From IMG/VR virus record IMGVR_UViG_3300032117_000012: a DNA stretch of 64,000 nt; one strand, written 5' to 3'. Below are positions 10,069 through 61,143 of the stretch, in pieces. The notes beneath the pieces were generated by a model. It did no database searches. It saw nothing but the letters and a program-made list of their open reading frames with translations, and was not told where the DNA came from. Position 1 is the stretch's first letter. Each line of letters begins with the position of its first letter. This stretch comes from a virus. Lineage: Duplodnaviria > Heunggongvirae > Uroviricota > Caudoviricetes. The translations under genes and the position numbers were made by a program.

Positions 10069-10724
10069 TATTTCTTCCTTATGGGTTTAGCAGGTTTCTT
10101 TTGTTTCACGGATGACAACATAGCAGCAGAATCCTTCCAAACAGCAGCAGTAGTTGCTTTTTGGAATTTCTGAGTAGGTAACATCAATGCAATATCCCAT
10201 TCTTTAGGCTCAATGTATAAAAATTGGGATCTCACATGATCGTATAAATACATTTTAAAACATGGCTTGAATAATGAAAGATTAGATGCATTTTTTAAGG
10301 TTTGGTATGATATCATTAAACGAGTTGTATCATCATACTTTTTATTATTAGCTATCACATACAAAGCATCCATTAGTTTAGCCCTTAGCACTGGTTGAAG
10401 ATAGTGTAGGTTAATACCGTAGAATCCTCCGGGGAATGTTGCTACTGGAAATATAAGAGGGAATGCATCCCAATACGGAAGCTCATCTTTATGTTTAGCA
10501 TCATATGTGAACATATACATACGTCCCGGCATACATGTATTAGTGGCCAAAGCATTCCCAAATAGGTTATCTCTATTAGAAATCAATCTAGCAGCCCTAT
10601 AATTTAATGCCTTATTACGAAACCAATCTCTTGCCTCTTTAGATTTATTAGGAAGAATACCCAAATCAGCGGCTTTTTTAAGCATATTACTATAGATATA
10701 TTTACTGGTGGTAGTTGAAACCAT
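10068..10724 (-). CDS. hypothetical protein
   Basis: 218-aa ORF, basic C-terminus. Confidence 0.4.
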   Translation of the reverse strand: MVSTTTSKYIYSNMLKKAADLGILPNKSKEARDWFRNKALNYRAARLISNRDNLFGNALATNTCMPGRMYMFTYDAKHKDELPYWDAFPLIFPVATFPGGFYGINLHYLQPVLRAKLMDALYVIANNKKYDDTTRLMISYQTLKNASNLSLFKPCFKMYLYDHVRSQFLYIEPKEWDIALMLPTQKFQKATTAAVWKDSAAMLSSVKQKKPAKPIRKK

Positions 10725-10750
10725 TTAAAATCATTCCTCGTTTTATATAT

Positions 10751-11188
10751 TTAGTTGATAAACCCACTGTTCTTTTCTGTAGATATAACAAATATCCAGC
10801 CTCGTTCATCACAGAATTTTTTACATGCATTCCATTTCGCCTGATTGATCATATACGTAGAGGCTTCTTCTAGATATCTTTTAGTTTGACGTTTAGGTTT
10901 AACAGGAGGTTTGGTATACTTATCGGGTTTAATCTCCATTACAATTTTATCACCAGCTTTATTTTCTAAGTAAATATCTGGAAAATATCTATGGCTTTTT
11001 TGGTCAATAGGATTAAAGTATACAATAGAAAATTCCTCTGATGCCCATTTTAAAACAGAAGGATCTAAATCTAATCTACGGAATACTTGTAGTTCCCACC
11101 CAGAGCGATATATAATATTATTTGGATTGCCCATATATTTATCGGGATTCTCTGGGGTATAACGGCCTTTATAGGTTTTATAGTTCAT
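10751..11188 (-). CDS. PD-(D/E)xK nuclease-like small protein (TnsA-N-like fold suggested)
   Basis: FPDIYLE ... VMEIKP arrangement resembles the D...(D/E)xK catalytic core. Confidence 0.35.
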   Translation of the reverse strand: MNYKTYKGRYTPENPDKYMGNPNNIIYRSGWELQVFRRLDLDPSVLKWASEEFSIVYFNPIDQKSHRYFPDIYLENKAGDKIVMEIKPDKYTKPPVKPKRQTKRYLEEASTYMINQAKWNACKKFCDERGWIFVISTEKNSGFIN

Positions 11189-12111
11189 TTAATTTATCTC
11201 ACATAAATACTTTATCCAATATAATATTTATAGGGAAAGCCATGAGTTCAACCACTATTACTGACCCAAATGTAGTAAAACAATCTTACAAGCCATATAC
11301 TGGCTCACAATCGCATGTATTTCCGCCTGAATTAGCAAAATCTGCTAATTTTTTATCTATGAATATCAGATCATATCAAAATACTCCCGGAATAACTAGT
11401 GGAGGTTCTGCTCCTTCTGTATCAGGATATAATATTCACCTGCCTATACCATACGCAGGATTAGAAGATAATTTTCATATCGATTATGAAAATACTGCTA
11501 GAGATGTTTTAGGTGGTACAGCGGCTGCTGTTATGGCTGCGCTTCATAATAGAACAGTTGCAGGTGATCCCCATGCAGGATATATTTCTAGAGTAGAAGA
11601 TGGTATAAAAAATAGTTATTATGGTGAATGGGAGGGTATATCTGCCTTTGTGGGATCAGAACTTCACGGGGCTATTTTAAATAAAACTGGCACAATCGGG
11701 CAACAAGCTGTAGGACAAGCTGTTAATCCTAATATATCTGTCTTATTTAAAGGAATAGGTATTAGAACTCATTCGTTCCGATGGAAATTGGTAGCCAAAA
11801 ATTCTGCTGAATCTAATCAAATATACGGAATAATAAAACTTTTAAAAACGGCTGCTCTTCCATCTAGAAACGCTGGTAGTAGTTTTACTATCCTAGATTA
11901 TCCAGATGTTGCATTTTTATCTTTGAATGGCCCTCAGGGTAACGGATTAATTACATTTGCAGGTTTTGGTTGCTTTATCGAAGATATTCAGGTAAGCTAT
12001 GGTGGATCTACGAGTCCTGCATTCTTTTTAAATTCTAATGCACCAGTAGAAGTAGACCTTATGATATCATTTAGAGAACGTACTATTATAACATCGTCGG
12101 ATATATCATAA
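11122..12111 (+). CDS. baseplate/tail-tube associated structural protein (gp48/gp54-like candidate); probable start at ATG ~11242
   Basis: first gene of plus-strand structural operon; Gly/Ser-rich beta-type composition. Confidence 0.4.
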   Translation: MDCPYIYRDSLGYNGLYRFYSSFNLSHINTLSNIIFIGKAMSSTTITDPNVVKQSYKPYTGSQSHVFPPELAKSANFLSMNIRSYQNTPGITSGGSAPSVSGYNIHLPIPYAGLEDNFHIDYENTARDVLGGTAAAVMAALHNRTVAGDPHAGYISRVEDGIKNSYYGEWEGISAFVGSELHGAILNKTGTIGQQAVGQAVNPNISVLFKGIGIRTHSFRWKLVAKNSAESNQIYGIIKLLKTAALPSRNAGSSFTILDYPDVAFLSLNGPQGNGLITFAGFGCFIEDIQVSYGGSTSPAFFLNSNAPVEVDLMISFRERTIITSSDIS

Positions 12112-12707
12112 TGACAACGCCTTCTTATTTCGGAAATTTTCCTAATACAGTTTATAATGGAACAACTATTCCTAATATATTCATGCGAGTTAAATTTCTA
12201 GAAACGTTACGGCTGGCTTCATCTGTATATTATCCATATGTTATAGAAGAAGGAGAAACTGCTGATGGCATCGCATCTTGGTATTATGGTAGTCCCGTTT
12301 ATGATTGGGTAATTTACCTAGCAAATAATATCATAGATCCTTATAGTCAATGGCCCAAAACATCTGCTCAATTTTCAGATTATATTATTAAAACATATGG
12401 TAGTATACAAGCCGCTCAATCTGAAATATTATTCTATAGACGAGAGCCAGATATAGGATATCTATCTCCTGATGGTAGTCAATTTTCATCTTCTCCGCAA
12501 CAGGGATATAATGTTGTGGTAAATAATACAGATTTAAGAATAACTCCATCATCATATGCTACTATACAAGATCCGGCCAATTACTTTCCAGTATATGCGT
12601 ATGATTATGAGAATGAACTTAACGAAAATAAACGTAATATATCACTCATAGATAAAAGTCTATTACAACGAATTGTTTCTGAATTATCTGGATTACTAAA
12701 TGCCTAA
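12111..12707 (+). CDS. baseplate wedge protein, gp53-like with LysM-like segment (tentative)
   Basis: 198 aa (T4 gp53 is 196 aa); VYDWVIYLANNIIDPYSQW...YIIKTYG LysM-like motif; operon position. Confidence 0.35.
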   Translation: MTTPSYFGNFPNTVYNGTTIPNIFMRVKFLETLRLASSVYYPYVIEEGETADGIASWYYGSPVYDWVIYLANNIIDPYSQWPKTSAQFSDYIIKTYGSIQAAQSEILFYRREPDIGYLSPDGSQFSSSPQQGYNVVVNNTDLRITPSSYATIQDPANYFPVYAYDYENELNENKRNISLIDKSLLQRIVSELSGLLNA

Positions 12708-23385: not shown

Positions 23386-24111
23386 TCAAATCAATGCGTT
23401 GTTACGAACATCATCAAACAGCTGGTCACGCAATAGTTCACCATCTGAATACACATCTTGCAAAACATCATCTTCTGCATACATCTCATATTTAACGGGA
23501 TGGCTCTCCGTGGTATAAGTAAAAAACTTACTATCCCAATATGGGGTATGCTTAAGAATCATTCGACCCTTCTTAGACCTTTTACCAGAATCAGTAAGAG
23601 GATCCTTATACACGTCAATCCATTCACCGTTGATAAATGCCGCCGAACACTTCATTGCAAACTTTTGATCGTCACGATTAACAATCTGTAGAAGAGCGCC
23701 GCCTTGGCCGAATGCCACATTATCAGCACTATAACCAATAGCAATAATAGCATTCAGAATTTCTTTGATAGTGTCAATAGTAATACCATCGCCTTGAATT
23801 ACACGAACATTGTTGAGAACCTTATATCCTTTATCATTAATAGCATGCCCAAAATGATAATCAAGGATTCGGATGCAGCTTTCTACCACTGTTGCTGGAT
23901 CGCCACTATCTGGGCGGATAACGGTAAACCCACCAAGTTCTCCGTTCAAGATAATCTTCTGTTTAATTTCAGGATCAGTTCCTAGGAGTTCGCAAAACTC
24001 AAAAATATTATAAGTATCTCCTACTATTGCAAAAGTCTTACCACCGGTGCCAAAATTGTCAATCATCGTGTTAATGTAGGTTCGTTCACTCATTTTATAT
24101 TTCCTTTCCAA
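23386..24111 (-). CDS. nadV: nicotinamide phosphoribosyltransferase (NAMPT/NadV), C-terminal fragment translated from its own ATG
   Basis: IRPDSGDP, VIQGDGI, RSKKGRM blocks align to NAMPT C-terminal half. Confidence 0.8.
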   Translation of the reverse strand: MERKYKMSERTYINTMIDNFGTGGKTFAIVGDTYNIFEFCELLGTDPEIKQKIILNGELGGFTVIRPDSGDPATVVESCIRILDYHFGHAINDKGYKVLNNVRVIQGDGITIDTIKEILNAIIAIGYSADNVAFGQGGALLQIVNRDDQKFAMKCSAAFINGEWIDVYKDPLTDSGKRSKKGRMILKHTPYWDSKFFTYTTESHPVKYEMYAEDDVLQDVYSDGELLRDQLFDDVRNNALI

Positions 24112-25199
24112 TCAACTAGTTTAAAAGAGCATCCATTAAACTTAGCGTTTCTTTTTGAATAACTATTATATGTGCCTTCTTTGATGGCTATGTTCCATAC
24201 CCCTTCAGTGCATCTATGTTCTCTCAAAAATGAACCTTTATTACCACAAAAGGTAAACAAAAGATTGTCTACCGGGGAATAGCATTCTATTTTCTTGTCA
24301 GTAGCCTTCATGTGAATACTAGGATCATACTCATCGCAGTTGATATTCACAAACTTATTCAGTTCTTTAATAAAGACTGTGACCATCCCCTTTGTTGTTC
24401 CATGATCAGGTTTCCTATTTTCTTTGGACGCCAGTGTTGAGTATCTATCCTTATTATGGTAATATTCTTCGGTTGTTACATGACATATTTTATCAGTGAA
24501 GGAGTCTTTTACAGTAACCTTACCTGCATGAATGCCATTAAGTTCATGATTGTCTTCTGTAGTTGCATATCTTCGCATTCCAGCATCATCTATTACTTTC
24601 CCTCCAAACACCTTAACATGAACACTAGGATCAAACATGCTAACTGGCATGGAACTTGTTTCTCCTGTTTCAATAACTCGTACACTAACTTTGCCAGACG
24701 ATGCGGTGCGATATAGATGTTTATTGTTTCGGTATTCCTCTACGGAAACTCTACAAACACCACCAGATGATATTTTTATAACCCGAACACTGTTGCTAGT
24801 AGGATAAGCATGAATAGTAGAATCAAACTCATCTTTTGGAATCCTGAAATAAGTTGAATCTTCTAGCAATCTAACAACAACCGTATTTTTAGTATTCCAC
24901 CCTCTGCCTCCGGATATTATATTATAAGTATCTACCCTTTTCACGAAATCTTCATTTACAAGTTCCGCTTCTTTGTTATTCATCTCATCAAACGAATCAT
25001 ACATGTATAATATGCGTCTGCTAAACGCATGAACACCGTATTTTAACAAGGCATTAGTAAAACGAGTCCCGGAACCAAGATATCCATCATCAATGTTGGT
25101 AGTAGAATGCTGTCCAACATATATCATACCATTGATAGTATTTGTAGTTTCGTATATAATATAAAACATTTTTAAGTATGCTCCATTGCAGTAACACAC
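24090..25199 (-). CDS. GIY-YIG homing endonuclease inserted inside the NAMPT gene
   Basis: N-terminal IYETTNTINGMIYVGQHS...GYLGSGT GIY-YIG module; sits between the two NAMPT halves with a 4-nt gap and an overlap. Confidence 0.75.
   Translation of the reverse strand: MCYCNGAYLKMFYIIYETTNTINGMIYVGQHSTTNIDDGYLGSGTRFTNALLKYGVHAFSRRILYMYDSFDEMNNKEAELVNEDFVKRVDTYNIISGGRGWNTKNTVVVRLLEDSTYFRIPKDEFDSTIHAYPTSNSVRVIKISSGGVCRVSVEEYRNNKHLYRTASSGKVSVRVIETGETSSMPVSMFDPSVHVKVFGGKVIDDAGMRRYATTEDNHELNGIHAGKVTVKDSFTDKICHVTTEEYYHNKDRYSTLASKENRKPDHGTTKGMVTVFIKELNKFVNINCDEYDPSIHMKATDKKIECYSPVDNLLFTFCGNKGSFLREHRCTEGVWNIAIKEGTYNSYSKRNAKFNGCSFKLVDWKGNIK
24090..25199 (-). mobile_element. freestanding homing endonuclease gene insertion splitting nadV
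   Basis: see CDS; no room for a group I intron core at either junction. Confidence 0.6.
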
Positions 25200-25203
25200 T
25201 TAT

Positions 25204-25908
25204 TTAGTCCTTTTGGTGACTTGCACTTATAGAATGTTCGCTAGCAGGAATACTAAAACCAGCCATATCAGCACCATAATACCGACGAGCATACAAAAGA
25301 GCTTCGATAGTGTCAGTACCCATGAAGTTGATAAGATGGGCAGATCCGCCAATTCCAGCAGATTCCAAACTAGATACGCCACGAGCGCCGAAATCGTGCA
25401 ATTTAAAATTAATATCAGCGGGTGTGCCAGTATGTTCAAGAGCATCCAAAATCACCTTCTTAATTTCACGACTATTGGTTGCTACTGTTGTAGGATACCA
25501 AATCGAACGAAGAATAGCAGTTTCAAGAAAACTTGTCAACCAATAACATTTTGGATCTGTGTTGATGATAGTCGCCAACACATTACGAACAGGAATAACC
25601 ATTCCCTCTGGAACTGCCTTAATATGAACAGGAAGGCAACCATTATGAGCATGAAGAATATATTCCCATCCTTCACGGTTAAATGGTTCACCATGGGCAG
25701 TAATAATGGCCTCAGCTTCATCAATCATGTCTTGGGTAATAGGTGCAAGCAAGTATTCCTTGATAAATGCTTGGAGGCCAAAAAATACGGTTTCATCATA
25801 CTTTCCACCCCTACTCTCGATATAACTGTAGATATATTCGGTGTTAGGAGGATATTGATTGAACTGGCTGTACTTATACGAATCTGCGTTAAGAATAATA
25901 TTTTTCAT
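25204..25908 (-). CDS. nadV: nicotinamide phosphoribosyltransferase (NAMPT/NadV), N-terminal fragment
   Basis: ADSYKYSQ, HDFGARGVSS, PASEHSISA blocks align to NAMPT N-terminal half; ends ...SHQKD where homologues continue. Confidence 0.8.
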   Translation of the reverse strand: MKNIILNADSYKYSQFNQYPPNTEYIYSYIESRGGKYDETVFFGLQAFIKEYLLAPITQDMIDEAEAIITAHGEPFNREGWEYILHAHNGCLPVHIKAVPEGMVIPVRNVLATIINTDPKCYWLTSFLETAILRSIWYPTTVATNSREIKKVILDALEHTGTPADINFKLHDFGARGVSSLESAGIGGSAHLINFMGTDTIEALLYARRYYGADMAGFSIPASEHSISASHQKD

Positions 25909-29018: not shown

Positions 29019-30116
29019 TCATACTCCTAGGAAGAAATTGATAATATGAAAATGATCATCAAAAAGCATATCTTCACGAAGTTCCCCGATAGGGATCCAC
29101 TTTGCTTTTTCAGCATCATCCGCACCTTTGACCTTAGGCAATTTTACATCATCTGTCAACTTGAAATGGGCAGCATGAGTGATAACCCTACCCAAAGTAG
29201 ATCGATGCACATCATCGAACACATGTTCGCCTACTTGACAACCACGGATAACCTTTTCAGGAACCTTAATAAGAGTTTCTTCCTTAAGTTCACGAAGGAT
29301 ACCATCGGATATACGTTCATCCATCTCTAAATGGCCTCCCGGAAGTGCCCACAGCCCCTTTCCCGGCTCACTGCGGCGCTTTACCAACAGAATATGCCCA
29401 GATTGCTCTACAACAGCATCTACAGTAACATGTTTAACTGGATATGGTGCAGCTGCCCATGATTTCTTATATGCCTTTACGTGGACCAATTCCGACTTCA
29501 ATTGGTCATACTCTGAGGTATGAATAAATCGGTCAAAGAGAAATTGTGCGCTCTCCTTAGGAAGAAGAGAATCTTGGACTTCCCATTTATGTAACCGTCC
29601 TTCAAGAAATCCTTCACGAATATTAGTTGCATGAATATCTCCATGAACATCCACATTCACGGATTCCCATTGGGGGAACAATTTAAGATAATATGAAGAA
29701 TGATCTTTAGAGGCTCCAATCAAGCCTACTTTGGCATCAGCAGTTCCATGAAGATGAAATCCACCCTCATTAATGATATCAAGAGTTACATTATTAGCAA
29801 TATCTTGAATTTGCTTAACCCACGCACTATCATTGTAAAGCTTATCATATAGAGGCTTAATAATAAGGCGACTGTTAGCAGTTTCTGTGGAATATCCAAA
29901 TGGAATCCCTACATGATCTGAGAATACCTCAGAAATAACATTTTCTCGCTCTTGAAATGTAAAGGGGGTACGAATTGTACGTGCTTTACCAGCAGATCCA
30001 ACCAAAACCAAGACATTTCTTGATTTCTCTAAAGCGGTTTGGATAACCTTGACATGGCCAAGGTGAAGAGGACTAAATCGCCCAATAAAAACCAATAGGT
30101 CAAATTCTTTATTCAT
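29019..30116 (-). CDS. natV: bifunctional NMN adenylyltransferase / Nudix hydrolase (NatV/NadM-like)
   Basis: N-terminal GRFSPLHLGH HxGH nucleotidyltransferase motif; C-terminal Nudix box GGHLEMDERISDGILRELKEETL. Confidence 0.85.
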   Translation of the reverse strand: MNKEFDLLVFIGRFSPLHLGHVKVIQTALEKSRNVLVLVGSAGKARTIRTPFTFQERENVISEVFSDHVGIPFGYSTETANSRLIIKPLYDKLYNDSAWVKQIQDIANNVTLDIINEGGFHLHGTADAKVGLIGASKDHSSYYLKLFPQWESVNVDVHGDIHATNIREGFLEGRLHKWEVQDSLLPKESAQFLFDRFIHTSEYDQLKSELVHVKAYKKSWAAAPYPVKHVTVDAVVEQSGHILLVKRRSEPGKGLWALPGGHLEMDERISDGILRELKEETLIKVPEKVIRGCQVGEHVFDDVHRSTLGRVITHAAHFKLTDDVKLPKVKGADDAEKAKWIPIGELREDMLFDDHFHIINFFLGV

Positions 30117-51333: not shown

Positions 51334-52551
51334 TTAGTGATTGATGCGAATAATTCCATCATGATCTACTTTATTTGCAAAATGTCCTGCGGCTTCGTTT
51401 TTAACGCCTTTTAAGCGTAAACCAGATACAACACCATGTCCAGCTTTACCGAGCGTTCTACCAGCTTGTGCGTGACGATCAAAGGTATTATCATCATGAT
51501 CCCCGTTTACGATAGGGTATCTACGGCCAGATTTCACATCTTCAACATGAGTAGGATTTGGAACATCCTTACCCCTGTGATAAACCATAGCCACTGTATG
51601 TCCACCTTCCAATTTCTTAACTGATTCATGATCGTTTGATTCAGCATGTCCTGTCCCTGTATGCGAAAGTGTAAGATGATAATTTTCAGGCGTTTTAGGA
51701 TGGCCGACACGGTTAGGAATTTTTGTGTAATCATAAAATTGGGCACCCGGATGACGCTTAAAAAGTTGCGGAGCATGATGTTCCCATGAAATATCCGAAG
51801 TAACATTCATACGAACTCCCGGTTTATATCCCTTCTTTGTTGCTGCCTTAACGTGATTACCAATTTCATGATCAATTAATCGTCCAGCATGTTCAGGATG
51901 CATTGCCAAATAATGTGTTCTCAAAACTTTGGCCGATAATGCTGCGTCTGGATATTGTTTATTTCCACCAGCTTCTGTACCCAAGCAATTTGCACGGCAT
52001 TCTTTAGAAGCACGAGGGCAAACATCAAACTTATGAAGACCATTAGTTGCGTGTGGTGCTAAAGAAAGTCCTTTTGTATGAACCATCTCACCTGTGGATT
52101 TCTTAGTCTTACCATTTTCACCTAGCATAGATGGACCAGTTTTATATCCACGACTTTGGGCAAAAGAATTCCAATGAGCCTTTGATTCTTTAAGTTTTGC
52201 ACTAGATTGTGAAGGAGATTCGTGTTCCATCGATTCAAACGTATGACGAAGTTTTTGCCCCATTGTCTTATGTACATTTGCCCCATCAGGAAGCTCAGAA
52301 TTGCCCTGTTGAATAAGGGCACGAGTCTTAGGTAAATTCATAGACTTATGAGCAAACTTTTCAACATCGACATCTTCAAAAATGCTGCCAAACATTTTAT
52401 CATCCACGCCTTCATGCATAGATCCTGTGTGCATAGATGGATCGGAAGGACTACTTACATGGAATAAAAAGTCATGAAGACACTTATTGGTGATTAATGG
52501 ATGTTCGCTGACAGCCATTGCTTCAGCCAAAAATGAGGTAAAAGTTTTCAT
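51334..52551 (-). CDS. internal head protein-like, His-rich 405-aa protein with T4-type capsid targeting sequence at N-terminus
   Basis: N-terminal MKTFTSFLAEA parallels the T4 internal protein (IPIII/Alt) leader MKTYQEFIAEA, including the L-x-E prohead-protease cleavage context. Confidence 0.5.
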   Translation of the reverse strand: MKTFTSFLAEAMAVSEHPLITNKCLHDFLFHVSSPSDPSMHTGSMHEGVDDKMFGSIFEDVDVEKFAHKSMNLPKTRALIQQGNSELPDGANVHKTMGQKLRHTFESMEHESPSQSSAKLKESKAHWNSFAQSRGYKTGPSMLGENGKTKKSTGEMVHTKGLSLAPHATNGLHKFDVCPRASKECRANCLGTEAGGNKQYPDAALSAKVLRTHYLAMHPEHAGRLIDHEIGNHVKAATKKGYKPGVRMNVTSDISWEHHAPQLFKRHPGAQFYDYTKIPNRVGHPKTPENYHLTLSHTGTGHAESNDHESVKKLEGGHTVAMVYHRGKDVPNPTHVEDVKSGRRYPIVNGDHDDNTFDRHAQAGRTLGKAGHGVVSGLRLKGVKNEAAGHFANKVDHDGIIRINH

Positions 52552-52744: not shown

Positions 52745-52834
52745 TGGCGGAACCGGTGGGATTCGAACCCACGGACCCCGTAAAGGGTCGCCACCTTTCC
52801 AAGATGGTGCCTTAGACCGCTCGGCCACAGTTCC
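52745..52834 (-). tRNA. tRNA-Ser(GGA), type II, CCA encoded
   Basis: GGAACTG acceptor; GCC GAGCGGTCTAA GGC D-arm; anticodon arm CCATC TTGGAAA GGTGG; long variable arm GACCC TTTAC GGGGTC; T-arm GTGGG TTCGAAT CCCAC. Confidence 0.75.
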
Positions 52835-53114: not shown

Positions 53115-53735
53115 TTACATAGTTGGGCCATTACCATTTTTAAACCCAATTTCTCCGCCTTGATCAATAATGGCCTGACATACATCATCAAACAGCATAG
53201 GTTTGAATTCCGTATGCTCGGCAGATACACAAAAATATCTTGGATCTATTCCTTCTTTATAAAAGGTCTGATATCCAAAACTTCCACCGGGACCATCTAG
53301 TTCTTTGTATGGAACTTTCGTCATAACCCTGTTAGAATGAAGATGACCATGTATATTACATCCGAACCTTCCAAGAGACTCAGCATGAATTGGGATATGA
53401 GATAGAATCAACCCATTCATTACATGGTAACCACGAATATCATAAAAATACGGAGTATAATCAGTCAATTTAAAAATATCATGATTGCCCTTGATCAAAA
53501 CCTTCTTTCCATTCAGTTTACCAAATGTAGACAGATGTTTACGACCAATAACCGCATCTCCTAGTACATAAACTTTATCGTTATCTTGAACTGTATCATT
53601 CCACAGTTCAATCATAGCAATATCCATCTCTTCCGCCGAATTCCAAGGCCGAATGGGGTTACCATTTTTATCTGTAAAAACACACATATTGTTATGTCCA
53701 AAATGTGTATCAGCGATTAGAAATGTTCTACTCAT
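53115..53735 (-). CDS. calcineurin-like metallophosphoesterase (candidate 3'-phosphatase/2',3'-cyclic phosphodiesterase of an end-healing system)
   Basis: DTHFGH, GDAV, GNHD, GHLH metallophosphatase motifs. Confidence 0.7.
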   Translation of the reverse strand: MSRTFLIADTHFGHNNMCVFTDKNGNPIRPWNSAEEMDIAMIELWNDTVQDNDKVYVLGDAVIGRKHLSTFGKLNGKKVLIKGNHDIFKLTDYTPYFYDIRGYHVMNGLILSHIPIHAESLGRFGCNIHGHLHSNRVMTKVPYKELDGPGGSFGYQTFYKEGIDPRYFCVSAEHTEFKPMLFDDVCQAIIDQGGEIGFKNGNGPTM

Positions 53736-53916
53736 ATTTATTCCTTACAAATGATCCATTAAAATATCCGACCATTTTTCAATTATTTCATCTCTGATAT
53801 CATCGTCAAGATCGTTCCATTCATCTCCGATACCTTTACGAGATTCCAAATCTTTAACAATGGCCTCTGCCGCTTCTCTATACGAAGCAATATCATTTGT
53901 CAACATCCTTGACTCC

Positions 53917-54384
53917 TCAAACATAAGAAATTTTAGAAAAACCTTCTTCCATCATGGGATGTTGAAAATTCATCGCCATAGATTCCAAAACATGTTTTGG
54001 AATTGTCTTACCGAGACGAGAATCCAACCTACGCTGCCATTCTTCTTTATCTGGAACAGGAAATACAACAGCCTTAAAATTATATCCAAATGGTTTCAAA
54101 ATATCGATAATTCTTTTCCGAGACTTCACCGAAAGATTAGTACGATCAATGTAGATATCAGACCCAGCTTCAGCTAACTTAGCCAGACGATTAAACATGG
54201 TTTTCTCAGCAAACCCTATAAGATCTTTAAATGCTGCATCATATGTCATCATATAGGTATTAGCAATATCTTCAATAATTCGATCTGTAGAAACAACAAA
54301 GGTATTAAAATCTTTCTGTGCATCAACCCAAGTGGATTTACCGGATCCGGGAACGCCGACTAAAAAAGTACATTTACGCATCAT
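53917..54384 (-). CDS. polynucleotide 5'-kinase, T4 Pnk kinase-domain homologue (P-loop)
   Basis: VGVPGSGKSTW Walker A identical in T4 Pnk (GCPGSGKSTW); IYIDRTNL parallels Pnk ISDTNL. Confidence 0.7.
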   Translation of the reverse strand: MMRKCTFLVGVPGSGKSTWVDAQKDFNTFVVSTDRIIEDIANTYMMTYDAAFKDLIGFAEKTMFNRLAKLAEAGSDIYIDRTNLSVKSRKRIIDILKPFGYNFKAVVFPVPDKEEWQRRLDSRLGKTIPKHVLESMAMNFQHPMMEEGFSKISYV

Positions 54385-54551
54385 CAGATCCTTTCTTCTT
54401 AAAAGTATACTTCAATTTTGGAACAACAACCATTTGTTGAGTTTCATTATAATAAGGATTAACCGAAACTCCAACCAATTCCCAACCTTCTCGTTTATGC
54501 CATGCCAGAGTTTCAGGAGAAAGTCCAGTTTTAACTGTCAAAATATTATAA

Positions 54552-55688
54552 TTACTCATAATCTCTTACGCCTTTAAATTTTCCAAATCTTGGTATACCA
54601 TCAGGAGTATAATCCTGAAATACTACAGTACCCATTTTACCTATAATTTGAGATTTGTCAACCAAAAGTTGTCGGCAATATTCGAGAGAACCTAATGGAC
54701 CACTTCCAAATAATTTACCTTCTTTTGTCTGACAAATTACATTCGCAGCTACTCCCTCACGATTACCATCTCCATCCACCACATCAATAATCAAAAATTC
54801 ATCATCCTGAAATTCTTTCCATTTCATTAATGATGTCGAACGCTTAAATTCATATTTTTCATTGAGACGTACCATGCCACCTTCAAACTCAGATTGTAGA
54901 TATTCCGAACATACATTACCGACATTTTCCAATGGACAGTCGAGAATAGTATCTACGGCCACAATAGAAGGATGATTAATAACATATACGATTGCCTCAT
55001 ACGTAGAATATCTTTGTATAAATCCTACATCTATAGATGGCACATCATAAATCCAGTATTGAACCTTGGCAGCAGATTCGATAAGATCTTCCGCAGTTGG
55101 AGTTTTTTTCTTAATCAATGACATTATCTTATTAAAATTACGGCTATATTCATGGTTATAAAGTTCGCCGTCCAGAATAAGATCTGGGAATTGTTCAAAT
55201 AATGGTGCCAACGCATCCGAAATATGGGGAACAGATACAAATAATTCTTTATTACGAGAAAAACATCCATCTTTGGTGACGATACATCTGGCACCATCTA
55301 ATTTTGGTTGGACTGATACTGAGGTAACTCCGGCTTCAATTAAAAACCGTAGACGATCTTTCCATTTTGTTGCCAACATAGGTTCAACACCTTGTCTGTT
55401 ATCAACATCATTAATGTTTTCAAAATAGCCTTTTTTTATTTGTTTTTCATACATCGCTATTACTTCAAGTTCGGCCTGATCTTCTGGCGAAGTTTCGTTA
55501 GTTTTTCCTACATTTTTAGACTTACACCTAGTCCAACTAGAAATAGTCTTCTTTCCATCTATTTGGCCAGAAATAGTATGGTAAGACCCCCCATCGATTT
55601 CTGCGTACCAAATTTGAATATTACCTTTGGTTGTTCTTTTATACAGATGAGGTTTCGTTTTCATTAATAATTTCTTTCTTAAAAACAT
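54552..55688 (-). CDS. ATP-dependent DNA ligase
   Basis: EPMLATKW start-of-domain motif; KLDGAR nucleotidyltransferase motif I (KxDG). Confidence 0.7.
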   Translation of the reverse strand: MFLRKKLLMKTKPHLYKRTTKGNIQIWYAEIDGGSYHTISGQIDGKKTISSWTRCKSKNVGKTNETSPEDQAELEVIAMYEKQIKKGYFENINDVDNRQGVEPMLATKWKDRLRFLIEAGVTSVSVQPKLDGARCIVTKDGCFSRNKELFVSVPHISDALAPLFEQFPDLILDGELYNHEYSRNFNKIMSLIKKKTPTAEDLIESAAKVQYWIYDVPSIDVGFIQRYSTYEAIVYVINHPSIVAVDTILDCPLENVGNVCSEYLQSEFEGGMVRLNEKYEFKRSTSLMKWKEFQDDEFLIIDVVDGDGNREGVAANVICQTKEGKLFGSGPLGSLEYCRQLLVDKSQIIGKMGTVVFQDYTPDGIPRFGKFKGVRDYE

Positions 55689-55799
55689 AATGTGTGTGAT
55701 AATTTTTCACATATACTGAGACTAATTCCCATCCATCCGCTCCATATCTATTCATTGTAGCTTCAGACATTTCAACAAAATTTAAATATTGAAATGTCT

Positions 55800-56231
55800 T
55801 CACTTCTCGGCCTCTGGATAGATAATAATCATAGGCTTTTGTTGTTTTTCTGCATAATCATGCGTATACCATGTTCCTCCATTAGGTTGCCATTCTTTTT
55901 GATATGGCACTACCATAAGAAGATCTGTCTCGTCAACTATATTTCTATTACGAGCAAAATAGCTTAAAGGCTCTCTACGTTCATCTGAGATAACAAAAGC
56001 TCGTAGATCCTCTTTTGCAGGCGGATGGCATACAATTTTATAACCAAGTTGTTTGGCTATATCTGCTAATTCTGCATCAACTCCTATACAATCGCCATGA
56101 TGAAATTCAAATTCTTCATAAATTTTTGCACCTTCATGTTTAATATTATGAAGAAAATTGCATGCCATTTGAATTTGATATTGATTACAACCGGAACGTG
56201 TGCCTGTTACACCGATCTTGATAACACTCAT
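55800..56231 (-). CDS. SLOG/DUF2493-like Rossmann-fold protein (tentative)
   Basis: IGVTGTRSG N-terminal glycine-rich motif, HHGDCIGVD. Confidence 0.3.
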   Translation of the reverse strand: MSVIKIGVTGTRSGCNQYQIQMACNFLHNIKHEGAKIYEEFEFHHGDCIGVDAELADIAKQLGYKIVCHPPAKEDLRAFVISDERREPLSYFARNRNIVDETDLLMVVPYQKEWQPNGGTWYTHDYAEKQQKPMIIIYPEAEK

Positions 56232-56647
56232 ACATCAGTCTCCGAATTTAACTTATTAATAAACCAAGGTCTAGCGATATTCGCAATAGGACCACCAAGT
56301 TTCTTTGGGTCAATCTGGGAAGCAATCATTGTATCCATTTCTTCCTTCATGATATCATTGAAAACCCAACGAATAAAGTCTCCCATAGATTTCATTTCAA
56401 ATAGCATAATTTGAACAGTAGAATCAGAATTAACAAACGTCAATGCTCTTGACGAAACATGTGCATTCCAATATCCAGATTCATACATCCATACTAAAGC
56501 TTCATCTCTAGCCTTGGTAGATTTGGGATAGATATCCCAATCATTAATTGGTTTATTTGTGACTAAACTGGTAATAGCTCCGCCAGCAATAAAGCATTCT
56601 TTCAGACCAGCTGACCCACCGAATACAGCAAGAATTTTATCTTTCAT
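56228..56647 (-). CDS. hypothetical protein
   Basis: 139-aa ORF, GG..G glycine-rich N-terminus. Confidence 0.4.
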   Translation of the reverse strand: MKDKILAVFGGSAGLKECFIAGGAITSLVTNKPINDWDIYPKSTKARDEALVWMYESGYWNAHVSSRALTFVNSDSTVQIMLFEMKSMGDFIRWVFNDIMKEEMDTMIASQIDPKKLGGPIANIARPWFINKLNSETDV

Positions 56648-56779
56648 GCTAGAACTCCCACTCGAATGGTGGGAGGTTGACGATGATCGCTCGGAAGACG
56701 TTCCTTCTAAAATAGGAAAAGATTTAATAGATTTTATAATATCATGCTTTCTACATTAAAGATTATACACATACTTCGT

Positions 56780-57580
56780 TTAGATGTCAAGTGTTAAATT
56801 GGGATTGAACTCATTTTTATTTTCTTCTCTGTAACCCTTTGGATTAGCTACAATTCTAGTTTTTCCAATGTGGTAATCGAAGCTAGAGTGAGTGTGTCCA
56901 TGTGTCCAAAGCACAATATGCTCATTATCTAAAATCAATTCGGACAAATCAGAGTGATATGCACCGTTCAAGTGATAATCACCAGCATATTTTGCATTTA
57001 TACTAAGTGGACTTGGGGCATGATGAGTGCATACCACAACTTTCCCAACATACCCCTCAATTTCCTTTTTAAGGTATGCTACAGCCTTGTCATGTAGCAA
57101 TACGGCATCAGATACCTTGAATTTACGATAATTAGGCTTACCCCATGTAATAAGCCTAAAGTCATTCATACAATCACCAATAATAACAAGAGACGTAGGA
57201 TTACGTTTGTTGCCATCAAACCATAAAGTGGAACCGATAAATTTAATCTCATCTATAACAATAGAATCATTATCCAAAACATGAACATTTGGATACGCAT
57301 TAAACAACACTTTTAAATATGCCGCATATGAATCGATCCTACCATGATAATATTCATGGTTGCCAAGGATATAAATTACATTCTTCCAGTTTTCAGAACA
57401 ATAATCCATAAATGAGCTAAAATCAGCATTAAGAGTAAGCTGATAAGGACTCTCTGATCCACGAAGTAGATAGTCAATCACGTAAATATCCCCGGAAAGA
57501 ACGAGAACGTCCGATCCGGGGATAGGGCGAGGCAGAGTATCAAACTCTGCATGTAGATCACTTAAAACGGTTATTTTCAT
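56780..57580 (-). CDS. calcineurin-like metallophosphoesterase (second copy)
   Basis: VLSDLHAE, GDIY, GNHEYY, HHAP, GHTH motifs. Confidence 0.7.
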   Translation of the reverse strand: MKITVLSDLHAEFDTLPRPIPGSDVLVLSGDIYVIDYLLRGSESPYQLTLNADFSSFMDYCSENWKNVIYILGNHEYYHGRIDSYAAYLKVLFNAYPNVHVLDNDSIVIDEIKFIGSTLWFDGNKRNPTSLVIIGDCMNDFRLITWGKPNYRKFKVSDAVLLHDKAVAYLKKEIEGYVGKVVVCTHHAPSPLSINAKYAGDYHLNGAYHSDLSELILDNEHIVLWTHGHTHSSFDYHIGKTRIVANPKGYREENKNEFNPNLTLDI

Positions 57581-57887
57581 CTCTATACATCCTATAATCT
57601 TTAATTAATGGTTCTACAATTAGTACATAAGTTGGAATTATTGTAATCGCACCAAGTATGATACACAATGCACCAACCTCTCCCACAAATGATGCTAGTA
57701 GAAAAAATATTTCAATTGATCCCCATACTCCAACACAAGCTGCAAATAGTAAACTAAATGCGGCTACAAAATCCATCAGCGCATCATTATCCAATATAGC
57801 TGCCCAAAGAGCTTTCCAATCAATCATTATACATCGCTCCATCAAACCATTCATCACGAAGTTGATTATATTTGGTATTGCTACCAA
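57558..57887 (-). CDS. small membrane protein
   Basis: 109 aa, hydrophobic. Confidence 0.4.
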   Translation of the reverse strand: MVAIPNIINFVMNGLMERCIMIDWKALWAAILDNDALMDFVAAFSLLFAACVGVWGSIEIFFLLASFVGEVGALCIILGAITIIPTYVLIVEPLIKDYRMYRDENNRFK

Positions 57888-59065
57888 GATTATTACGAAC
57901 CATATTTAAAATGGCATCGTATGCTAGGGCCGGAGAATTGTCATCAAACAATTTAAATACCAAAGGTCGAAGGTAAGGAAGCTCCTTATCACCATATTTG
58001 ATGGCATAAGTTTTACGATCCAACCCAAGAGTTTTTGTATAATATTCGACCCTGTTGAAAAGACAGGTTGCCATTTCATGCAAGAAAAACTCAATTTTAT
58101 ATTCGAAATTTATCAACTTGATACGATCTTCATCTAGCACATGAGCTTTAATATCGTCAAGAGAATTTTCCAAAATCATCTCAACAATATTTCGATCTTG
58201 TAAAATCGATTCCTTGGCTTTATGGATTTGGACATACCAATGGCACTTCAATTTTACCATATGGCCTGAGTCAAATCGAACCACAAAACCTTCAAGGTCT
58301 TCCAAATCATGGACGTATTCAAGGAAAGCCTTAGTATCGTTTTGTTCTCCATAATTGGTCATATTAAATACCCGAACAACAGGAATATCACCATTACCTT
58401 CTACAAATTTAACCATGGAATCATGCTTTGCATAATGGCCATTATGCAAATGACGAATAGCAGTCAAAACAAGCTGATCTTCTTTATAATCAAGTACGAT
58501 ACGTTGTTTACGTGAACACCATTCAAAGATCGGAGTAAGGTGCATGGAAATCATCCAACGAGCAAACTTCTCATATTGGGGATTGTTCTTCACAAACTCC
58601 TCTACAGGCTTAGCAACATCGGTAGCACCCATCTTAGTACCCCTAGATCATCTGACCATCGACAATGAATGGAGCAATCATGCTTCCATCTAATTTTTCA
58701 ACAATGACATGTGGATGACCAAGATTTATTTGATTTTCCTGAGTTTCTTCACGCTCGTTCACGTTGAAGAACTTATGATAAGGGCGACGAATAATATCAC
58801 CAGTTTTAGAATCAAAAATGATACCACGACATTCACGGCGAATTTTGGCTTGATATTGTGGAAGATTACGCTCCTCTAAAGAACCAATCGTCTTAAACTC
58901 ACCATTTACATCAGGAAACGTATCATGAAAACAAACGTTATAGTTTACAACAGTATAACCTTCTTTCTCGGCAACTACAAATTCAGGACGATCCTTGATA
59001 GCAGGTAGAACATCTTTAATATTATAGATTTCTGGGAATTCATATCCGTACATAATATATCTCAC
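57820..59065 (-). pseudogene. rnlA: RNA ligase 1 (T4 RnlA/gp63 family) split into two ORFs (58643..59065 N-terminal with motif I EKLDGSM; 57820..58632 C-terminal) by a +1 frameshift at atc-tag-ggg; either disrupted, a homopolymer sequencing error, or recoded
   Basis: motif I EKLDGS (T4 KEDGSL); C-terminal GLDRKTYAIKYG, HWYVQIHKAKESI, EGFVVRFDSGHMVKLK parallel T4 Rnl1; joining frames gives DGQMI-RGTKMGATD matching T4 LDGDEILFKSKGSIKSE. Confidence 0.6.
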
Positions 59066-59715: not shown

Positions 59716-59907
59716 TTAATTTAAAACAATTTCAGAAAGAAGCACATATCCATGAACACTAGGAAGTGCCTTATATTCATATAGATGGTAAAGAATGGAA
59801 TTGTAGTTTGTGATAATTCCGGGAATAATTTGGTATCCGAGGGCGGTAACGCTCCACCGTCTATGAATTATCAGTTCATTGCTCTACTTTTGAGCTACAC
59901 GGATATC

Positions 59908-59982
59908 TGGATGCCCCGTTTGGACTCGAACCAAAACCTACAGATTCAAAGTCTGTTGTCACTACCATTAGACTAAGGGGCA
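59908..59982 (-). tRNA. tRNA-Gln(TTG), U1-A72 pair, CCA encoded
   Basis: TGCCCCT acceptor; anticodon arm ACAGA CTTTGAA TCTGT; T-arm TTTGG TTCGAGT CCAAA. Confidence 0.7.
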
Positions 59983-59995
59983 TTAATTTTTATTA

Positions 59996-60069
59996 TGGAT
60001 GCCCTCCAAGGACTCGAACCTTGATTCACGGAGTCAGAGTCCGCTCTCTTACCATTAGAGGAAAGGGCA
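59996..60069 (-). tRNA. tRNA-Gln(CTG), U1-A72 pair, CCA encoded
   Basis: TGCCCTT acceptor; CTCT AATGGTA AGAG D-arm; anticodon arm GCGGA CTCTGAC TCCGT; T-arm CAAGG TTCGAGT CCTTG. Confidence 0.75.
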
Positions 60070-60442: not shown

Positions 60443-60519
60443 TGGTAGCCCCACCGAGTTTCGATCCCGGATCATAGACTTGAGAGGTCTATATGCTACC
60501 CAACTTACACCATGGGGGC
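60443..60519 (-). tRNA. tRNA-Glu(CTC)-like, CCA encoded; acceptor has one C-C mismatch; 5' end overlaps the stop region of the GIY-YIG gene
   Basis: anticodon arm TAGAC CTCTCAA GTCTA; T-arm CCGGG ATCGAAA CTCGG; acceptor GCCCCCA/TGGGGCT. Confidence 0.5.
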
Positions 60520-61143
60520 CGTTCTTCCTTTATACCATCCATCTGGAATATTGTCAATTCTTTTTATCTTTTTATTTACTATACCATCAGTAATCCATTG
60601 TGTTCCAAATTGTGAGTTTTCTTTTCCACAATTTTTTCCTATTTTAGATAAACGCATTTTATTTTTAGATTCATCTGAATGTTTTTTACCAAGAAATGTA
60701 GAAAATGCTTCTTTACCGTGGCGTTCTATAATCTTAGATATTCTATTTAATTTCCAACTTTCGGATGAATGATATTCTTTAAATTGTTTAGATGTATAAT
60801 TTCTACGACTATATCCTCCCATGCTAGAAGCTCGTGGTGATCTTAGTCCATTTGAATTAATATAACTAAATCCACCTTTACCTCCAACACAGATATTGTA
60901 GGTGTCATTTCTTGCACAAAACTCTTCAGTTACTAATTCGGCTTCCTTGGAATTCATCTCAAATTTGGTATCAAAAATATATACGATTTCTTTATCAAAA
61001 TTACTTATTCCATATTTTTCAATGGCATGATTCAATAATGTTCCTGATCCCATATATGAATCTTTTAAATTCTTTGTTTGATGTTTTCCGATATAAATTT
61101 TACCATTTATCTTATTTGTTATTTTATAAATTGTATAAAACAA
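60505..61143 (-). CDS. GIY-YIG homing endonuclease
   Basis: MFYTIYKITNKINGKIYIGKHQT...YMGSGT GIY-YIG module. Confidence 0.7.
   Translation of the reverse strand: MFYTIYKITNKINGKIYIGKHQTKNLKDSYMGSGTLLNHAIEKYGISNFDKEIVYIFDTKFEMNSKEAELVTEEFCARNDTYNICVGGKGGFSYINSNGLRSPRASSMGGYSRRNYTSKQFKEYHSSESWKLNRISKIIERHGKEAFSTFLGKKHSDESKNKMRLSKIGKNCGKENSQFGTQWITDGIVNKKIKRIDNIPDGWYKGRTAPMV

Follow-up and report, generated by a model that had tools for sequence, protein, structure and literature searches.

Does the run of nucleic-acid end-healing and sealing genes at positions 53115–59065 of a 64,000-nucleotide stretch of phage DNA (IMG/VR record IMGVR_UViG_3300032117_000012; hereafter the window) form a system for repairing broken tRNA, and which of its genes would belong to that system? 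In phage T4, a polynucleotide kinase-phosphatase (Pnkp, encoded by pseT) and RNA ligase 1 (Rnl1, gene 63) repair tRNA, countering the PrrC anticodon nuclease. The first-pass annotation of the window described seven tandem minus-strand genes as one consolidated module of this kind. The strand and coordinates of these genes hold. Assigned with Pfam, PHROGs and NCBIfam, the interval contains 12–13 co-directional, mostly overlapping open reading frames (ORFs), two DUF4177-like and one small and hydrophobic among them, with Rnl1 split in two. On balance, we read a core of three of these genes, encoding a metallophosphoesterase (MPE1), a stand-alone kinase and an Rnl1-type ligase, as a variant of T4-type phage RNA-break repair, with sealing doubtful in the window phage itself: both RNA ligase genes of the cluster are damaged, a feature overlooked in the first reading.

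A ligase–kinase–phosphoesterase unit is conserved across phage loci

To define the unit, about 90 loci were compared: 80 IMG/VR loci with a kinase homologue and others found through Rnl1 and exact-protein look-ups (numbered below with the prefix L), with the neighbouring ORFs clustered. We dereplicated the loci at 90% kinase identity and kept those flanked by 3 kb or more in each direction; in the resulting 40 lineages, neighbours were counted on the same strand. Of these, 31 have an Rnl1-family ligase no further than 3 kb from the kinase and 24 an MPE1 homologue, on either side, at up to the same distance; in 23, both fall within 4 kb. The ligase takes either a ~400-residue form or a ~305-residue form without the C-terminal domain, PF09511 matching both, and its gene frequently overlaps that of the kinase (as in L012). 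Across the kinase loci, identities range from 41 to 57% for the kinase and from 29 to 67% for MPE1. These low values, together with the presence of MPE1 on either side of the kinase, suggest that the linkage is held by selection and not merely inherited. As a control, we took 80 loci from the same collection carrying homologues of MPE2, the second metallophosphoesterase of the cluster; within 6 kb, 7 of them had MPE1, 5 an Rnl1-family ligase and 3 the kinase, and none had Rnl2.

Judged by these neighbourhoods, the conserved unit is Rnl1-family ligase–kinase–MPE1 and not a seven-gene block. The proposal of a tRNA repair module thus survives for the core, on the strength of profile matches, synteny and tRNA enrichment, and fails for the consolidation of all seven genes: the DNA ligase adjoins the kinase only in the window and in L006, and RNA-repair neighbours accompany MPE2 homologues in about 10 of 80 loci. 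In the window, Rnl1 and the kinase are separated by ~3.4 kb of other genes (MPE2, a 139-residue chimera, a SLOG-like protein, two DUF4177-like ORFs and the DNA ligase), which are neighbours and not demonstrated module members.

Further healing functions recur around the kinase. A DSP-PTPase that matches the 'Swiss Army Knife' phosphatase model occurs within 3 kb in 15 of the 40 lineages, and an HD_4 protein in 7. Six loci (L046, L063, L074, L080, L082 and L087) carry MPE1, DSP-PTPase, HD_4 and the ~305-residue ligase around the kinase; the end-healing set of such distant loci is richer than in any characterised system. The module is also a hotspot for mobile endonucleases. In L005, GIY-YIG homing-endonuclease genes (10732–11328 and 11880–12512, minus strand) lie between Rnl1 and kinase and between kinase and MPE1.

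The arrangement extends to cultured phages. Synechococcus phage BUCT-ZZ01 carries Rnl1, the kinase, three small ORFs and MPE1; on one strand of Caulobacter phage Cr30, an MPE2 homologue, a small ORF and an Rnl2-type ligase are followed further downstream by Rnl1 and the kinase. Unlike in the window, the ligases of both phages are intact; protein identities are only ~35–52%, and annotation lists these genes as ATPase or hypothetical. Hit coordinates put the Rnl1 and kinase matches no more than ~300 bases apart in another eight cultured phages.

The kinase resembles polynucleotide kinases

The product of the kinase gene is predicted to be a polynucleotide 5′-kinase. A family profile of 17 homologues, searched against the PDB, matched in order T4 Pnk (1ly1, 2.4e-11), the kinase of Clostridium thermocellum Pnkp (CthPnkp), mammalian PNKP and Pnkp1, with L-seryl-tRNA(Sec) kinase next after these polynucleotide kinases; a search with the single sequence also ranked polynucleotide kinases first. 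The motifs named by the first-pass annotation are all present, namely PGSGKSTW and DRTNL in the kinase, KLDGAR in the DNA ligase and EKLDGS in Rnl1, and in the 1ly1 alignment PGSGKSTW is identical to T4 Pnk. Within the P-loop (GVPGSGKST), K16 is invariant in the 17 homologues. So is D34, which aligns with the general base, D35 of T4 and D38 of CthPnkp. T82, R119 and R123 are likewise invariant and are the counterparts of T4 T86, R122 and R126, which are the threonine of the D-x-T-N motif and the lid arginines.

With 155 residues, the protein ends without the C-terminal HAD (DxDxT) 3′-phosphatase domain. The 120 homologues listed, 133–188 residues long and each with AAA_33, likewise consist of the P-loop kinase domain only. 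In L018, two kinase copies (8001–8462 and 10272–10745) lie 1.8 kb apart and are followed by MPE1.

MPE1 is a candidate 3′-end healing enzyme

Where the kinase lacks its HAD domain, the first-pass annotation proposed that calcineurin-type phosphoesterases take over. The conserved linkage of MPE1 upholds this for one of the two enzymes, and we predict from sequence and context that MPE1 is the 3′-end healing partner of the kinase; MPE2 is an inconsistent neighbour, considered below. The DxH, GD, GNH(D/E), H and GHxH metal-binding motifs are all invariant in 19 MPE1 homologues. The MPE1 family profile matched AQ_1665 (1xm7) over its full length at 1.6e-23, with GpdQ far behind. An AlphaFold2 model of only moderate quality (predicted local distance difference test score, pLDDT, 69.9) gave 1xm7 as the sole significant fold match and nothing new.

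Metallophosphoesterases able to heal 2′,3′-cyclic phosphate RNA ends are known in CthPnkp and lambda phosphatase (PMC2190708), and a jumbo-phage survey notes that calcineurin-like and HD domains appear as the phosphatase in the RNA repair of a few phages (PMC7824862, section 3.4.9). Neither lambda phosphatase nor the Pnkp phosphatase was matched by MPE1 or MPE2 in sequence and fold searches. By its matches, MPE1 is an AQ1665-type enzyme and not of the lambda-phosphatase type. A likeness to the bacterial Pnkp/Hen1 arrangement, suggested earlier, accordingly breaks down at the level of homology: MPE2 is PptH/MPPED2/Dbr1-like, and Pfam scans of the cluster ORFs and 38 other ORFs of the window revealed no Hen1 or other methyltransferase. 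The MPE1 family is large, with more than 7,500 protein clusters recovered by its profile.

The repair cluster recurs beside tRNA genes

The source of the window is an uncultured T4-like myovirus, with tail and baseplate genes in the window; its relatives encode T4-type polymerase, UvsX, gp13, gp15 and sheath genes. Near-identical contigs were found in several JGI and Logan metagenome assemblies. Megablast returned no DNA-level relatives and distant blastn only three short matches, each under 100 bases; by these searches, the phage is not close to any cultured phage.

The cluster had been placed beside a tRNA island and in fact lies inside it, with tRNA genes on both flanks. ARAGORN called 18 tRNAs at 42.7–63.6 kb (19 in the window) and Rfam added one, at 59834–59904 on the minus strand (52.4 bits, not called by ARAGORN), all on the same strand. 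Two ARAGORN calls, tRNA-Asp (46681) and tRNA-Met (49708), fell below the Rfam gathering score, and the Rfam scan of 42000–64000 revealed nothing besides tRNAs.

This association of the repair cluster with tRNA genes is recurrent. At the 80 kinase loci, ARAGORN found 155 tRNA genes in 894 kb, with at least one in 34 loci and at least five in 12, compared with 9 in 825 kb at the 80 MPE2 control loci, where 7 carried at least one and none carried five. The densities, 1.73 and 0.11 per 10 kb, differ by ~15-fold, a ratio that is indicative only, given the phylogenetic dependence of the loci.

A putative repair pathway and the points that weigh against it

These observations are consistent with a pathway whose substrates and division of labour we infer from family membership, intact catalytic motifs, conserved adjacency and recurrent placement beside tRNA genes. 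A host ribonuclease would cut tRNA or other RNA to leave a 2′,3′-cyclic phosphate and a 5′-OH. MPE1, as a binuclear metallophosphoesterase, would open the cyclic phosphate and take off the 3′ phosphate, the stand-alone Pnk-like kinase would phosphorylate the 5′-OH, and the Rnl1-type ligase would seal the break.

Several points weigh against this scheme. The kinase has Ile37 three residues after its catalytic aspartate, a position that is never Arg in the 17 aligned homologues; structural and mutational work found the corresponding R38 of T4 and R41 of CthPnkp to be essential, anchoring the first phosphodiester of the acceptor strand (PMC3902929). The sole solved relative of MPE1, AQ_1665, is an Aquifex protein of unknown function. 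The weak NCBIfam match of MPE1, to the PdeM model TIGR04123 (2.5e-8; 33.6 bits, below the curated 150-bit cutoff), is named there as a ligase-associated DNA-damage-response endonuclease. Fusions of kinase and MPE1 are absent from the top 120 matches of either family. The loci compared come from related phages, and their synteny counts are not fully independent. Finally, with Rnl1 frameshifted and Rnl2 reduced to a relic, the full pathway may not operate in the window phage.

The Rnl1 gene carries a fixed frameshift

Rnl1 is not one gene in the window; it occupies two ORFs in different frames (Table 1). The N-terminal fragment ends VDGQMI followed by TAG, and the C-terminal fragment begins 10 bases on in the +1 frame. 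Deleting A-58644 converts ATC TAG GGG TAC to ATC TGG GGT ACT AAG ATG, that is, I-W-G-T-K-M-G, where intact homologues read R-W-G-T-K-M-G (L001 and L005) or V-F-G-T-K-M-G (L006). The N-terminal fragment is 57–69% identical to the corresponding parts of intact homologues, and all motifs are present across the two fragments: EKLDGS (I), FEW (III), EGFV (IV) and KLK (V). The T4-type C-terminal domain that confers tRNA specificity (PF20819) scores 30.0 bits against a 27-bit cutoff (6.9e-7). The repaired join reaches 145.9 bits on TIGR02308, below its 242-bit cutoff, and on these scores the protein belongs to the T4 Rnl1 family and is not the T4 RnlA equivalog.

The lesion is real and fixed in the phage population, because the same sequence occurs in an independent assembly and the database holds only the 270-residue product. 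The independent Logan assembly (L008) carries the identical lesion, with 2 differences from the window in 14,861 bases. When the repaired Rnl1 was searched against 5.8 billion proteins, only the 270-residue fragment, recorded on 8 contigs, exceeded 64% identity; the other 119 best matches listed are full length (381–420 residues), so that the window gene is the sole split one among the 120, and no intact allele of it appears among the matches listed. These results, and the absence of a homopolymer run, reject a sequencing error. A programmed +1 frameshift also appears unlikely, since AUC-UAG-G offers no re-pairing codon and no upstream Shine-Dalgarno-like stimulator is present.

The lesion would be either recent or tolerated. 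In a relative-rate comparison, the Rnl1/kinase branch-length ratio was 1.31 for the window, against 0.65–1.55 in relatives with intact genes. Directly behind the new stop lies a GGGG-N7-ATG arrangement; re-initiation there could yield both fragments, which could reassemble as a two-piece enzyme. Sealing in the window phage either relies on such a two-piece Rnl1 or has been lost.

A 139-residue ORF preserves the tail of a second RNA ligase

Profile searches covered the two ORFs at 55800–56647. One, a SLOG-like protein, matched phrog_289 and, weakly, cpYpsA. The other, a 139-residue ORF once considered a source of added functions such as 2′-O-methylation or adenylate handling, proved to be assembled from gene fragments. 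Its residues 17–83 match the N-terminal head of Pol-beta-type nucleotidyltransferases (GG...DWD; phrog_27100; precomputed Pfam Gad2). This match covers only positions 30–99 of a 386-position profile, full catalytic profiles of these enzymes spanning about 250–480 residues, and PF10127 (RlaP) was absent from the Pfam scan of the ORF at E ≤ 0.01. Residues 79–135 are 61–72% identical to the extreme C-terminus of a 356-residue Rnl2-type RNA ligase, the highest value being to residues 297–353 of the full-length enzyme in L036. By these alignments, the ORF is chimeric: ~80 residues of a truncated nucleotidyltransferase head are fused to what remains of an Rnl2-type ligase, its final 57 codons.

In cultured phages, the annotation given to the 356-residue ligase type is RNA ligase 2; L036, L037 and Cr30 carry it at full length. 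In L006 it is N-terminally truncated and lacks motif I (11291–11965), and in L039 it is interrupted by ~1 kb (3–350 and 1328–1636). It seems to have been lost repeatedly in this phage group. The window contains neither an intact Rnl2-type copy nor, apart from the split Rnl1, another RNA ligase.

Has the repair arm decayed?

The two damaged ligases raise the possibility that the cluster is a decaying relic. With at least 19 tRNAs of its own, the phage would then have no further need for sealing; Rnl1 would have turned into a pseudogene recently, Rnl2 would already have been destroyed, and the kinase–MPE1 pair would either be left over or have a task that does not involve sealing. Relaxed selection on repair could follow from the large tRNA set. 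The fixed state of the frameshift, its uniqueness among the best homologues listed, the lack of a route for a +1 slip at AUC-UAG-G, the reduction of Rnl2 to a 57-residue tail with no other RNA ligase in the window, and the truncated or interrupted Rnl2 genes of L006 and L039 would all fit such decay. However, Rnl1 has suffered just one lesion and keeps every catalytic motif, its branch-length ratio lies inside the range of intact relatives, and the GGGG-N7-ATG arrangement could permit a two-piece enzyme; moreover, the view is limited to a 64-kb window of the genome. We consider decay possible but less likely than the repair reading.

A bolder proposal, which we put forward as speculation and consider unlikely, is that the kinase without Arg38 and MPE1 together form a two-protein end-healing enzyme, the common 'Pnkp' of environmental T4-like phages, tied to tRNA islands. 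In the window phage, with both RNA ligases taken as lost, this pair sits together with the DNA ligase behind a consensus promoter and may heal ends for it, or Rnl1 may work as two pieces by re-initiation after the new stop.

Transcription units and a possible role in DNA-end repair

Table 1. Features of the repair cluster and its flanks, in window coordinates.
Feature	Position	Strand	Evidence or remark
Three tRNAs in tandem, immediately upstream of the cluster (two tRNA-Gln, one Rfam-only)	59834–60069	−	
Rnl1 N-terminal fragment, 140 residues, motif I EKLDGS	58643–59065	−	PF09511 2.1e-15 (profile positions 1–67); phrog_562
Extra A shifting the Rnl1 frame	58644–58644	−	ATC-TAG-GGG vs ATC-TGG-GGT
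Rnl1 C-terminal fragment, 270 residues	57820–58632	−	PF09511 2.9e-16 (profile positions 96–227); PF20819 6.9e-7
Small hydrophobic ORF, 89 residues as called in L008	57558–57827	−	No family match
MPE2, 266-residue binuclear metallophosphodiesterase	56780–57580	−	PF00149 (Metallophos) 2.3e-13; phrog_1649
Sigma-70 consensus TTGACA-17-TATAAT, 12/12 match	56762–56790	−	Ahead of the block from the 139-residue ORF to MPE1
Chimeric 139-residue ORF	56228–56647	−	phrog_27100 (residues 17–83); phrog_548 (residues 83–134)
SLOG/DprA-like protein, 143 residues	55800–56231	−	phrog_289 5.5e-10; cpYpsA 0.005
DUF4177-like small ORF	55639–55803	−	PF13783 6.6e-5
ATP-dependent DNA ligase, motif I KLDGAR	54552–55688	−	PF01068 and PF14743; phrog_114 1.4e-63; NF006592 2.3e-28
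Second DUF4177-like small ORF, paralogue of 55639–55803	54374–54559	−	blastp 3e-5 against the other copy
Stand-alone Pnk-like P-loop kinase, 155 residues	53917–54384	−	AAA_33 5.9e-21; phrog_505 'polynucleotide kinase'
Small acidic ORF between kinase and MPE1	53745–53924	−	No matches in related loci
MPE1, 206-residue AQ1665-type metallophosphoesterase	53115–53735	−	Metallophos; phrog_547 3.1e-44
tRNA-Ser(GGA), first tRNA downstream of the cluster	52745–52834	−	ARAGORN/Rfam scans

The cluster has a single intergenic gap of appreciable size, and in it lies a perfect sigma-70 consensus, which suggests two transcription units and a strong host-type promoter driving the DNA ligase–kinase–MPE1 block; promoter-like sites in total were not above shuffled expectation, and this site is a consensus match only. 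The chimera, the SLOG-like protein, the DNA ligase, the kinase and MPE1 would form one probable unit, apart from Rnl1 and MPE2.

This placement of the DNA ligase with the kinase and MPE1, downstream of the 12/12 promoter match, keeps alive a reading in which the cluster repairs DNA ends. The PdeM match of MPE1, the presence of mammalian PNKP kinase domains among the profile matches and the damage to both RNA ligases in the window phage would accord with it. PdeM is a manganese-dependent single-strand DNA endonuclease of a bacterial ligase–Lhr cluster, and it is not known to be linked to RNA ligases. Nevertheless, the PdeM score lies far under its cutoff, the DNA ligase adjoins the kinase in only two lineages against 31 of 40 for the Rnl1-family ligase, and the tRNA enrichment points to RNA, which together make a role in DNA-end repair distinctly improbable. 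The DNA ligase itself, with an adenylation domain (PF01068, 1.6e-10) and an OB domain (PF14743, 2.7e-6), is most likely the ordinary DNA ligase of the phage. The two DUF4177-like paralogues directly flank it on either side.

Other neighbours

Neither the DNA ligase, MPE2, the SLOG-like protein nor the DUF4177-like ORFs are, by their distribution, consistent partners of the core. The 143-residue SLOG-like protein reaches only 17 bits on the cpYpsA model, against a 26.2-bit cutoff, and had no sequence match in the PDB; its homologues are annotated as 'DprA-like' or 'GTP-binding domain'. Four loci, with three distinct arrangements between them, have one close to the kinase, and Rhizobium phages have one beside MPE2. 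The small hydrophobic ORF is probably membrane-associated, as read by eye from its sequence. A 405-residue GP88-family protein (PF17338, 1.2e-29) is encoded at 51334–52551 on the minus strand, between the cluster and the next tRNAs; a homologue in L038 lies 7.5 kb from the kinase. A GIY-YIG gene is found at 60505–61143.

MPE2 keeps the same five metal-binding motifs as MPE1, all invariant in 23 homologues. Its sequence found no match in the PDB; an AlphaFold2 model (pLDDT 94.7) has PptH, MPPED2, Dbr1 and Rv0805 as nearest folds, at TM-scores of ~0.6. Given the distribution described above, MPE2 does not belong regularly to the repair set. A partnership with Rnl2, hinted at by Cr30 and by the relic in the window, gained no support: no Rnl2-type gene was found within 6 kb of the 80 MPE2 homologues.

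Searches with PADLOC defence models gave weak matches only, to ShosA (0.0034) and, for MPE2, to the candidate system PDC-S10 (2.6e-11). Elsewhere in the window, a nicotinamide phosphoribosyltransferase gene (23386–25908, minus strand) is apparently split by a homing-endonuclease ORF into a C-terminal part (23386–24111), the endonuclease (24090–25199) and a probable N-terminal part (25204–25908); with a NadM/Nudix-like gene (29019–30116), it makes up an NAD+ salvage pair. A small-molecule role for the kinase and for one or both phosphoesterases, with nucleotides or nucleotide-derived immune signals (such as cyclic nucleotides or ADP-ribose derivatives) as substrates in place of polynucleotide ends, would agree with the cyclic-nucleotide phosphodiesterases Rv0805 and MPPED2 near MPE2, the PDC-S10 match, the salvage genes and the proposal that calcineurin-like phage phosphodiesterases degrade signals (PMC7824862, section 3.4.8), but the closest structural relatives of the kinase are all polynucleotide or tRNA kinases, and in many phages the kinase gene adjoins Rnl1 or overlaps it, so that this idea, plausible for MPE2 alone, is most improbable for the kinase–MPE1 pair.

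Comparison with known repair systems

The three-protein reading resembles the T4 system in its Rnl1-family ligase with a T4-type C-terminal domain, in a kinase whose profile has T4 Pnk as its best PDB match and in the same predicted logic of healing followed by sealing. It differs in that the kinase stands alone, without the HAD phosphatase or an equivalent of Arg38, the candidate for 3′ healing is a separate metallophosphoesterase, and Rnl1 is frameshifted. In T4, pseT does not neighbour gene 63, whereas the repair genes here are linked and embedded in the tRNA island.

Bacterial Pnkp offers a second comparison. The CthPnkp kinase belongs to the same clade of P-loop kinases (4jst and 4gp7 are among the top matches), and 3′ healing by a binuclear metallophosphoesterase is a proposed analogy (compare PMC2190708). 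However, Pnkp is a single kinase–phosphatase–ligase polypeptide with a lambda-phosphatase-type domain, whereas the proteins here are separate, and the equivalent of its Arg41 is missing.

Systems of this kind are already known computationally. Iyer et al. (2021; PMC7824862) described ATP-grasp RNA ligases (Rnl1 and Rnl2) together with polynucleotide kinase and phosphoesterases, in neighbourhoods that share with ours the DSP 'Swiss Army Knife' phosphatase and ligase-associated Pol-beta nucleotidyltransferases. Theirs is a survey of cultured jumbo phages, without detail on this kinase–MPE1 pair, both members of which are uncharacterised enzymes. Here, the pair proved to be common in environmental T4-like phages of ~130–360 kb and tied to tRNA islands, its copy of the system in the window being partly decayed.

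Implications for phage–host conflict

Phages are classically known to counter host anticodon nucleases by mending the cleaved tRNAs, a response that has been characterised in only a few enzyme architectures. The locus points to a widespread version, in which a kinase without a residue thought essential is paired with a phosphoesterase clade whose solved member is of unknown function; both families are abundant in metagenomes. The overall view of phage–host conflict is unchanged, and the value of the finding lies mainly in candidates for enzymology. The co-location of the repair genes with tRNA clusters ties together two known answers to tRNA attack, replacement and repair, and the window phage may be a case in which repair decayed after replacement had become established.

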